From Candidatus Hodarchaeota archaeon (GTDB lineage Archaea > Asgardarchaeota > Lokiarchaeia > Sigyniarchaeales > SOKP01), in NCBI GenBank assembly GCA_048887225.1, contig JBHLJY010000002.1:1-64000 (forward strand): a DNA stretch of 64,000 nucleotides, written 5' to 3'. Shown here in pieces: positions 11,357-34,581 of the stretch. Position 1 is the stretch's first letter. Every line of letters begins with the position of its first letter. Made by a program: the position numbers and the translations under genes. A model generated the notes under the pieces. It was not told the origin of the DNA. It did not search any database and saw only the letters and a program-made list of their open reading frames with translations.

Positions 11357-11656
11357 CTAGTATCGACGATCCTTTACTAAAACTTTAACATTTAAAGCTT
11401 CAGGTCCCTTTCCTTTTTCTATATCTTCTTTTACTTCAAACTCAACACGGTCTCCCATATCTAACTTTTTAAAACCGTCCATGTCAATATTAGAAAAATG
11501 GACAAAAATATCTTTTTGTCCTTCGTCACCATTCACACTAATAAAACCATAGCCTTTTCGATAATCGAACCAGAGTGAAATGAGTCAGAAAACGACCTAT
11601 TTTTTCACGTGTCCGGTTAATCGGCTACTAGCTGGCTTTCTTTTTTCATTTGCCAT
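11357..11656 (-). CDS. csp: Cold-shock protein (CspA family), two exons 11603-11656 and 11357-11572; 89 aa if spliced
   Basis: Manual translation [18 protein letters not shown]|[71 protein letters not shown] with RNP1 KGYGFI and RNP2 IFVHF; missed by ORF track because of stops in the insert. Confidence 0.9.
11573..11602 (-). other. Putative 30-nt bulge-helix-bulge mRNA intron
   Basis: Insert AAATAGGTCGTTTTCTGACTCATTTCACTC with in-frame TAG and TGA; central helix GUGA/UCAC flanked by 3-nt bulges AA^A and UC^U; canonical cuts restore the frame. Confidence 0.8.
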
Positions 11657-11833
11657 AATATAACACTTAATCAAGTTTAGATCTGTGATTAGAATAGAAT
11701 TTTATTTTAGTATCTTAATTCTATATTTTTAATTATGTATTAAAAAAATAAATTATTTTAAAATCTTTTTAATAACCATTTCTTCTCTATAATAAAATAA
11801 AAAATATGATCTTTTACTATATTTAGTGAAGTT

Positions 11834-32598: not shown

Positions 32599-34581
32599 AT
32601 GAGTGCCGACAAAAATAACAAAAATAACAAAAATTTTGAAAAAATATTAAAAACATTAGGTCAACGGATTAGAATAGATATTTTAAAGAAGTTAAAAAAA
32701 AATGAATCTTTATTAACTTTTTCTACGCTTCAAAAAGAAATTTTAGAAACGAATCAAAATTCTGTCAATTTTTCTTACCATTTGAAAGCATTGGAAAAAG
32801 TTGGTTTAATTTCATCTTCTGATAAAGGATATTTTATTACTTTACTTGGTAAGAAGATCTTAAAAATAATTTTATCAATGAAACAGTTTATAGATGATCA
32901 AAACAAGGTTAAAATGATTAGGACCTCAAAATATTCTAAAGAAGTTTTTGATTTTAAAACGATTATAAATTATTTGATTAAAGAAGGCGAATTAGATCAA
33001 AATTTAGCTAAAGACATTGCCAATGAAGTTAAAGAACGCCTTTCTAAGACAAAAATCGAATATATGACAGCGCCTTTAATGCGTGAATATATAAACGCAA
33101 TACTTTTAGAAAAAGGCTTAGAACATGTGAGGCATAGATTAACGCGATTAGGGACTCCTCCATATGAAGCATTAAAATTATTTAAAAATAAAGAAATCTC
33201 TCCAGAAAGATTCATCCAAATATCAGGTTCAGATGTTTCGGAGCAATTTTTATTATTAAATCTGTTGCCTAATCACTTGGCTGATCTCTATTTATCAGGA
33301 GAAATAGCTTTATGTAATCTTAACTATTGGAGTTTAAGACCATTAAGCATATACCTCAATACAAAGAGTCTCATATCTCGTTTATTTAATAAATTTTCAA
33401 TAAAATTAAAAAATTCAAGAGATTATATTAAATTAATTTTAAACTTCGGTGAATTGGTATCTGCCTTTAAACCATATATTTCTGAAGATCTACTCTTGGG
33501 CAGTTTTAATAAACATTTTCTCTCTCTATTTCGTAATAAAAAGCATGCAAATTTCTTGATTAATATTTTGACCTCAAAATTTTTAAAATATAGTAATAGT
33601 TATGGAGATGGACGATCACACATATCATTGGAATTTTGTTATAAAAACAAAAAAGGTTTAAAAGATAAAAATTTACCTAATTTTCAAACTGATAAAATTT
33701 TCATTAAAAATATTGAGAACGAAACAAATTTAGATAGTTTTCAGATAATTCCATTGATTTTATTTGATTATACACAATCAGGGATAGAAGATTTCATTTT
33801 AAGTGAAATTAATCCAACTGTAACAAAAAATAATATTACATTTTATAACGCTAACAAATCACATTTACTTAATTCAACTGTTATTAGAATTAAAAATTCT
33901 GACGAAAATGAATTTTTAAAGGTAAGAATTATTTTAGACAAGGTTTTGATTAATTTACATTTAATTTCATTAGAGGCAAATCAAAATGACGATTCTTTTT
34001 GTGATATATTACAAGATAGATTAAATTCCGTATTTGAATTTTTTAAATATAAAGAATACTTGATTAAAAAGAAATTGAATTCGTTAAAAAAATGGGAAAT
34101 GTTAATATCTCATTTTTTAGGGGCAGATTTTAGAAATTGGAGTAAAAATTCGTTAAAGTCAGTTAGTTTCCTTGGATTAAATGAAGCTATTACAAATCAT
34201 TGTGGTATTGAGCTCGATAGAATAGAAACAAGTCAATCTTTTGCCTTAAAAATTTTATCTCTTTTGAACGAACAAATTAAAGAAAAAAACGAAAATGAAA
34301 ATGAATGCTATATTTTAAGCCAGCCTCATAGTGATAAATATTTCGAAAGAAATAATAGAATAAAGGAATTAAATAAGAGAAGAAATTTTTATTCACCCAG
34401 AATAATAAGAAAACATTCAAAATTATCTTTAGAGAAAAAAATTTCAATTTTCAAAAAATTTGAGAAAATAATTGAAGGGGGAATTATATTCAATAATTCA
34501 GTTAATTCTGATAATGCATTATTTAAAAAGAATTTAAAAATTTTAACACAATCTAAGATAAATGCATTTTTAATTGATTAA
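32599..34581 (+). CDS. Winged-HTH + ATP-cone + degenerate class III ribonucleotide reductase (NrdD)-like protein
   Basis: RIDILKKL..FSYHLKALEKVGLI; IRTSK..FD..TAPLMREYINAILLEKG; SVSFLGLNEA; no C-terminal Zn ribbon or RxxGY loop. Confidence 0.7.
   Translation: MSADKNNKNNKNFEKILKTLGQRIRIDILKKLKKNESLLTFSTLQKEILETNQNSVNFSYHLKALEKVGLISSSDKGYFITLLGKKILKIILSMKQFIDDQNKVKMIRTSKYSKEVFDFKTIINYLIKEGELDQNLAKDIANEVKERLSKTKIEYMTAPLMREYINAILLEKGLEHVRHRLTRLGTPPYEALKLFKNKEISPERFIQISGSDVSEQFLLLNLLPNHLADLYLSGEIALCNLNYWSLRPLSIYLNTKSLISRLFNKFSIKLKNSRDYIKLILNFGELVSAFKPYISEDLLLGSFNKHFLSLFRNKKHANFLINILTSKFLKYSNSYGDGRSHISLEFCYKNKKGLKDKNLPNFQTDKIFIKNIENETNLDSFQIIPLILFDYTQSGIEDFILSEINPTVTKNNITFYNANKSHLLNSTVIRIKNSDENEFLKVRIILDKVLINLHLISLEANQNDDSFCDILQDRLNSVFEFFKYKEYLIKKKLNSLKKWEMLISHFLGADFRNWSKNSLKSVSFLGLNEAITNHCGIELDRIETSQSFALKILSLLNEQIKEKNENENECYILSQPHSDKYFERNNRIKELNKRRNFYSPRIIRKHSKLSLEKKISIFKKFEKIIEGGIIFNNSVNSDNALFKKNLKILTQSKINAFLID

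Follow-up and report, generated by a model that had tools for sequence, protein, structure and literature searches.

The csp gene, which encodes a cold-shock domain (CSD) protein, is located on the minus strand of the window (the whole stretch of 64,000 nucleotides analysed) and adjoins the gene for archaeal Pus10. The host genome (G000) is 3.27 Mb in length with 30% GC. A 30-nt intron of the bulge-helix-bulge (BHB) type splits the gene into two exons, and the features of the locus are collected in Table 1. Excision of the intron gives the junction ..TGHVK^WFDY.. (here and below, ^ marks an exon junction or a predicted cut), which agrees with four intronless paralogues in the same genome and with about 85 unique intronless orthologues. 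The MAKKK-type N-terminus of the product is common to the intronless orthologues. Rfam and ARAGORN searches of the window gave no matches.

Table 1. Features of the csp locus, with positions in the window.
Feature	Position	Strand	Description
csp exon 1	11603..11656	-	18 codons, ATG at 11656; K-rich N-terminal extension, then first CSD strand
BHB intron, 30 nt	11573..11602	-	in-frame stops UAG 11597-11599 and UGA 11585-11587
csp exon 2	11357..11572	-	remaining cold-shock domain and stop codon at 11357; Pfam CSD PF00313, E 2.9e-21
Central BHB helix H, 5' strand GUGA	11605..11608	-	partner 11575-11578
Central BHB helix H, 3' strand UCAC	11575..11578	-	partner 11605-11608
5' bulge AA^A	11602..11604	-	predicted cut between 11603 and 11602; inside A6 run 11600-11605
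3' bulge UC^U	11572..11574	-	predicted cut between 11573 and 11572
Intron helix h' AAU-A-GGUC / GACU-C-AUU with loop	11579..11601	-	8 positions, one A.C mismatch
Outer helix h, exon-1 strand	11609..11618	-	C11609, bulged A11610, CGGAC 11611-11615, unpaired C11616, AA 11617-11618
Outer helix h, exon-2 strand	11563..11571	-	G11571, GUUCG 11566-11570, unpaired A11565, UU 11563-11564
GAU/AUC	11620-11622 / 11560-11562	-	exon-exon block
UAGCC/GGCUA	11623..11627 / 11550..11554	-	possible second exon-exon block
AAAGCCA/UGGUUUU	11633..11639 / 11543-11549	-	lineage-specific outermost block
Rival helix ACCGGA/UCUGGU	11612..11617 / 11569-11574	-	buries 3' bulge

In the predicted motif, helix H is exactly 4 bp long and lies between the two predicted cleavage sites, and two 3-nt bulges stand on opposite strands, with the predicted splice sites after the second bulge nucleotide. 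The flanking helices h and h' each contain at least 2 bp. Helix h, which consists of 1 bp, a 1-nt bulge, 5 bp and 2 bp, is imperfect because A11610 is bulged after the first pair. The first-pass annotation had described this region as a long exon-exon duplex with a competing fold, and all the exon 1/exon 2 blocks it named are present on the minus strand. The A6 run at the 5' bulge and the U3 (11578-11580), which it proposed could slip against each other, are both there. A slip that shifts H by one position (UGAA/UUCA) would create a second BHB register, which removes 28 nt and shifts the reading frame. This register is disfavoured, since its helix is weaker and two of the five intron types are unable to form it.

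Both enzymes expected for a BHB intron, a splicing endonuclease and an RtcB-type ligase, are encoded by the host genome. Two ORFs (203 and 202 aa) belong to the EndA family (PF01974), and RtcB is detected with PF01139 (E 4e-145). Broad-specificity EndA of the (alpha-beta)2 form has been reported in Asgard archaea (PMC5829648). The RtcB gene is itself interrupted by a 29-nt insert (contig C13 of G000, 33458-33486, outside the window; loci L137/L138), and reading across the insert restores ..PGGVGY^DINCGCR... This insert has a clean BHB, with H UUGG/CCAA, bulges AU^A and AA^A, and an h' of 8 bp. Judged from the gene sequence, the ligase that joins BHB-cut exons seems to need splicing itself. As to tRNA genes, ARAGORN detected only 33 in the genome G000 (98% complete), 15 of which are flagged with introns whose boundaries are poorly placed. 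The low tally fits heavily interrupted tRNA genes missed by standard tools; such interrupted genes are described in a 2026 preprint on Asgard tRNA introns, which covers tRNA introns only.

In order to compare, we searched 135 genomes of the family and the JGI metagenomes; among the relatives are genomes assembled as one contig (4.4 and 6.0 Mb). An intron at the csp site is found in 10 sequences, which represent 5 intron types with lengths of 29, 30, 53 or 54 nt, while the intronless orthologues amount to about 85 unique sequences (96 loci). All five intron types share the 5' bulge AA^A, and the 3' bulge is variable (UA^U, AA^U or AU^U in the other types). A second csp intron site exists in three orthologues of another genus, where a BHB intron of 29-31 nt, 13 nt downstream, separates the R codon from the K-G codons (L022:1691-1719(-), L025:1479-1508(+) and L023:1704-1734(-)). 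The central helices at the second site are CCGC/GCGG, UCGU/GCGA and CCAG/CUGG, and close relatives lack the second-site intron. In a DNA tree of exon 2, from which the tenth intron-bearing sequence was omitted as a duplicate, eight intron-bearing and five intronless sequences form one clade, and the ninth intron-bearing sequence (L012) is placed elsewhere, near the clade with second-site introns. Four DNA read runs over the csp stretch contain only the known sister-strain variants (11598 and 11615) and fragments of relatives; they show no joints and add no covariation.

The 10 intron-bearing sequences of the five types were aligned to examine the conservation of the structure. The whole proposed structure is 83.6% paired in this alignment, compared with 29-46% in slid-register controls. 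Helix H is paired in all 10 sequences; its pairs vary between GC and GU, and one has changed from GC to AU on both sides. In helix h', 93-100% of the cells are paired, with 7 pairs changed on both sides. The pairs of the inner exon-exon stem (-7:+2, -9..-13:+3..+7 and AA/UU) are present in 8-10 of the 10 sequences, and this stem includes one A-U to G-C double change, at -15:+9.

The outer blocks behave differently from each other. UAGCC/GGCUA is paired in 90% of the cells and is kept within one clade only, with three wobble-preserving substitutions; it is retained in all nine g1-clade sequences, even where different residues are encoded (N-L instead of S-R). The pairing fails in L012, and one mismatch each interrupts it in type 4 (A.C) and type 5 (A.A); in the same register of the intronless orthologues the positions are paired at 0.11-0.95. 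GAU/AUC is paired in 3-4 of 10 sequences. For AAAGCCA/UGGUUUU, 62.9% of the cells are paired, mostly terminal A-U, and the central G/C pairs are present in 2-3 of 10. Among the aligned sequences, GAU/AUC and AAAGCCA/UGGUUUU are specific to this lineage. Of the checks over orthologues that the first-pass annotation had put forward, covariation is seen in H, h' and the inner stem, but neither in the distal blocks nor in the rival helix, and synonymous-site bias is seen in the inner stem. GAU/AUC and AAAGCCA/UGGUUUU pair at the level of synonymous shuffles.

Codon choice around the junction differs between intron-bearing and intronless genes. The Gly codon is GGA in 10 of 10 intron-bearing junctions versus 31 of 81 intronless ones, and the Phe codon is UUC in 8 of 10 versus 8 of 81. 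A cytosine precedes GGA in four of five intron lineages, versus 10 of 81 intronless junctions. The energy of the inner duplex ranges from -4.7 to -16.4 kcal/mol in intron-bearing sequences, versus -5.6 ± 2.2 kcal/mol at the 81 intronless junctions. When all synonymous combinations were enumerated exactly in five lineages, the weighted ranks of the native sequence for BHB stability were 0.055, 0.021, 0.001, 0.42 and 0.18; that is, the native codons are in the top 0.1-5.5% in three of five lineages, which are not fully independent. Since the protein dictates GGN..UGG UUY, the core positions of h already pair in 86-100% of the orthologues that lack the intron, so the core of this helix pre-exists there. 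The comparison of codons and energies supports the inference of the first-pass annotation that the coding sequence is under RNA-structure selection, in the inner exon-exon stem only. 

Beyond the inner stem, selection might have acted on the whole nested duplex, including UAGCC/GGCUA and, in this lineage, AAAGCCA/UGGUUUU, which would serve as a non-regulatory clamp that brings the splice sites together and keeps the AU-rich mRNA from folding in ways that compete with the BHB. The retention of UAGCC/GGCUA across the g1 clade, despite the amino-acid change in one type, argues for such an extended function. So do the distal duplexes of G000 and its sister G002 (-19.1 and -22.0 kcal/mol), which are stronger than that of any of the 85 unique orthologues without an intron (mean -11.2 ± 2.9, minimum -18.7). 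In addition, the native flanks outdo 96-98% of synonymous shuffles in preserving the inner stem (4 sequences, types 1 and 2), and the GC content of exon 1 at -36..-7 is raised in g1-clade intron lineages (0.40-0.57 vs 0.32 ± 0.06). Seven of nine g1-clade sequences are at or above the 98th percentile for this value, with T5 at the 85th, and the excess comes from the first and second codon positions, not the third. On the other side, the distal pairing is at chance given the actual amino acids (z 0.39 and 1.27). The expected number of distal exon-exon pairs in G000 is 11.7, versus 9.7 ± 5.1 in synonymous-codon shuffles (z 0.39), and the distal duplex energy has a z of -0.19 against such shuffles. 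Unanchored duplex folding of long exon segments is uninformative because the shuffles already reach -14 to -19 kcal/mol. Neither UAGCC/GGCUA nor AAAGCCA/UGGUUUU shows a double-sided change in the alignment, both are absent from the independent intron lineage L012, and the nearest sister type prefers local hairpins over the distal duplex in RNAfold. Shared descent explains the distal blocks equally well, because in effect one clade carries them. We therefore regard selection on the whole duplex as rather unlikely. Some RNA-level selection beyond the inner stem may nevertheless have occurred, and so may selection on the weakly constrained N-terminal peptide, as the values of one lineage suggest.

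Compared with dinucleotide shuffles, the 97-nt region is more stably folded (z -2.29; 4 of 200). With the BHB core forced, RNAfold returns exactly the nested set of blocks for L006 (from G002, the near-identical sister) and most of the blocks for G000. The claimed alternative pairing ACCGGA/UCUGGU, which buries the 3' bulge, is also present, and it is the RNAfold minimum free energy (MFE) structure at 5-80 C. At 0 to 45 C the probability of the rival helix in the 97-nt region is 0.96-0.99 and that of the BHB core is 0.004-0.006; the BHB core lies above the ensemble by a flat ddG of 2.9-3.4 kcal/mol, and the two populations do not cross over in silico. In longer contexts, ddG rises from 3.5 kcal/mol at 37 C to 9-11 kcal/mol at 0 C, a monotonic loss of the BHB on cooling that could be read as temperature dependence, although the low-temperature folds contain many isolated pairs and are of doubtful reliability.

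The two pairs of the rival helix that bury the bulge are found in 3 and 6 of the 10 sequences, and none of its pairs shows a double-sided change among them. The other four pairs are present because the codons ACC GG / U GGU force them. In sister intron types, the 3' bulge is mostly free in the ensemble (probability of pairing about 0.2 in two types). The native ddG is 5.6 kcal/mol, versus 5.3 ± 2.5 for distal synonymous shuffles (z 0.12), and 29% of the proximal synonymous combinations have a ddG at or below the native one.

How far such folds can be trusted was judged from other BHB introns. Host tRNA introns were of no use as an RNAfold control, as the ARAGORN boundaries gave no usable BHBs and a relaxed boundary search gave only implausible tRNAs; the RtcB intron and the second-site csp introns were taken in their place. 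RNAfold ranks the BHB below another fold in 13 of 13 other BHB mRNA introns, with the BHB core above the ensemble by 1.2 kcal/mol in RtcB, by 3.0, 6.6 and 9.6 kcal/mol in the second-site csp introns, and by 1.0-6.1 kcal/mol in the other nine sequences with an intron at the first csp site. Nearest-neighbour models favour the rival helix because the two 3-nt bulges are penalised. Since the 13 other introns give the same model preference, the rival fold is not evidence of a switch, and where a nearest-neighbour MFE structure contradicts a BHB, it should not be taken for a riboswitch-like alternative. Taken literally, the rival fold would predict an intron that is never spliced, which conflicts with the conservation of the gene. 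The rival helix is probably a lineage-specific coincidence.

The first-pass annotation had inferred a thermosensor or a Csp-feedback switch, in which the BHB and ACCGGA/UCUGGU folds interconvert with temperature or Csp binding and gate Csp production at the splicing step. Several points make this idea attractive: the rival helix exists, and its predicted stability exceeds that of the BHB; Csp cannot be made unless the intron is removed, since the intron carries in-frame stops (the peptide from unspliced RNA has 19 residues at most); the bacterial cspA mRNA is a known thermosensor acted on by its own product (PMC9947658, PMC6386945); and csp orthologues gained BHB introns at two different sites. 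However, the partition-function folding recommended as a check returned one dominant fold from 0 to 45 C in the 97-nt region, and the rival pairing is not conserved; in silico, two of the outcomes that the first-pass annotation had named as refuting are thus observed. Of the two mutually exclusive structures only the BHB is conserved in the 10 sequences, the native sequence is no outlier among synonymous variants in either direction and so shows no tuning towards near-equal energies, and the sister types leave the 3' bulge mostly free. Any switch would also be dispensable, because the intron is absent from close relatives within the clade, and a BHB mRNA intron with the same model bias occurs in an unrelated gene of the host genome (RtcB). 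The switch thus appears improbable. A variant, in which the bulge-burying helix together with the clamp, UAGCC/GGCUA included, would define a threshold that cold or melting by Csp shifts, so that Csp would be controlled at splicing by EndA and RtcB, is just as hard to credit. If true, the lineage closest to eukaryotes would possess an archaeal equivalent of the regulated unconventional splicing known from HAC1/XBP1. Finally, the gene might not be spliced at all but be a pseudogene or be expressed by stop-codon readthrough or frameshifting, in which case the pairing would be meaningless. The inserts are 29, 30, 53 or 54 nt long, so that some keep the two exons in one frame and others do not, which excludes readthrough; recoding or a pseudogene was rejected as well, as the insert lengths vary and the structure covaries. 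Both exons are intact and conserved in ten sequences, the covariation in h' and H is strong, the boundaries fall exactly in the BHB geometry, and EndA and RtcB are present; an unspliced gene is accordingly the most far-fetched of these readings.

The likely reading, in our view, is that this part of the csp pre-mRNA forms the splicing motif of a 30-nt BHB intron of the hBHBh' class, which is spliced constitutively and whose outer helix h is the exon-exon duplex. The two-subunit endonuclease of the host would cut both bulges, and RtcB would join GUGAAA to UGGUUC; csp splicing is probably constitutive. In this mechanism, the core of h would be supplied free of charge by the conserved codons Gly GGN ... 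Trp-Phe UGG UUY, and the intron-bearing lineages would then strengthen h by codon choice (GGA, UUC and C before GGA). GAU/AUC and AAAGCCA/UGGUUUU would be incidental, in that a GC-rich N-terminal extension under little constraint happens to be complementary to Gly/Tyr/Phe codons. As the duplex is the exon stem expected of a BHB, little is gained by proposing a switch.

Among documented cases, the nearest is the cbf5 pre-mRNA intron of Crenarchaeota (Watanabe 2002; Yoshinari 2006; Yokobori 2009, PMC2738675; references in PMC5829648). As in cbf5, a short tRNA-type intron lies inside a coding sequence, the motif is hBHBh' with an exon-exon outer helix, the splicing endonuclease of the host is a hetero-oligomer of the (alpha-beta)2 form, and the intron is patchily spread among relatives, indicating gain and loss. 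Unlike the cbf5 intron, the intron described here is in a csp gene of an Asgard host, apparently of the Lokiarchaeia type, its orthologues have introns at two sites 13 nt apart, and its splicing is predicted from DNA. The 4-bp central helix, the flanking helices and the two opposite-strand 3-nt bulges cut after the second nucleotide are also shared with the pre-tRNA and pre-rRNA BHB motifs that are cut by EndA. In contrast to these motifs, the flanking helix in csp is made of codons, so that it is constrained by the protein and tuned via synonymous sites, and with its 1-nt bulge after the first pair helix h is a relaxed form.

Two regulated systems were also compared. The E. coli cspA thermosensor (PMC9947658, PMC6386945) is similar in that the structure of a cold-shock mRNA could in principle control its own expression. 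However, the cspA sensor is a rearrangement of the 5'-UTR and early coding region, acts on translation, and has alternative structures that were experimentally shown, while the csp intron region has neither a conserved alternative structure nor a temperature crossover. In HAC1/XBP1 splicing (Ire1 with tRNA ligase or RtcB; PMC13149111), an endonuclease and an RtcB-type ligase likewise remove a short mRNA intron, which is needed for the active protein, and regulation at such a splicing step has a precedent there. The difference is that HAC1/XBP1 is regulated by nuclease activation and not by an RNA conformational switch, that its substrate is a pair of stem-loops and not a BHB, and that no regulator is indicated for the csp intron.

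In our literature search, no paper joined cold-shock protein, archaea and bulge-helix-bulge, and in the searchable literature BHB splicing inside a coding sequence is documented for cbf5 only. The comparison presented here illustrates how a BHB intron can coexist with coding: the exon half is pre-formed by GGN..UGG UUY and is then sharpened via synonymous sites. In this way it shows concretely what a "proto-splice site" for tRNA-type introns looks like in Asgard protein genes. The second csp intron site and the RtcB intron together favour the idea that this lineage commonly uses the tRNA machinery to splice mRNAs.

Some further observations concern the csp orthologues. The second codon of the intron is an in-frame stop (UAG, UGA or UAA) in 9 of 9 main-clade sequences, at 11597-11599 of the window and at the homologous positions in L006-L009, L089, L091, L092 and L097. 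Between G000 and its sister G002, a change of AG to GA keeps the stop and makes the intron helix perfect. This stop may reflect selection to end the translation of unspliced RNA at once, or AU-rich chance together with shared descent. Two orthologues (L079 and L084, from G083 and G085) are apparently broken, one with TAG for the Trp codon of KWF and the other with TAA directly before FVHF. In L092 (metagenome contig Ga0114919_10007080), exon 1 has 74 codons and contains a K/A/P-rich, histone-H1-like repeat (AKKAPKK..) before the cold-shock domain. About 30 nt upstream of the start codon (window 11657-11690, minus strand; AAACUUGAUUAAGUGUU.UA.UAUG) are nearly identical in intron types 1, 2 and 4, even though the introns and exon 1 have diverged among these types, and this segment may be a conserved leader or promoter.
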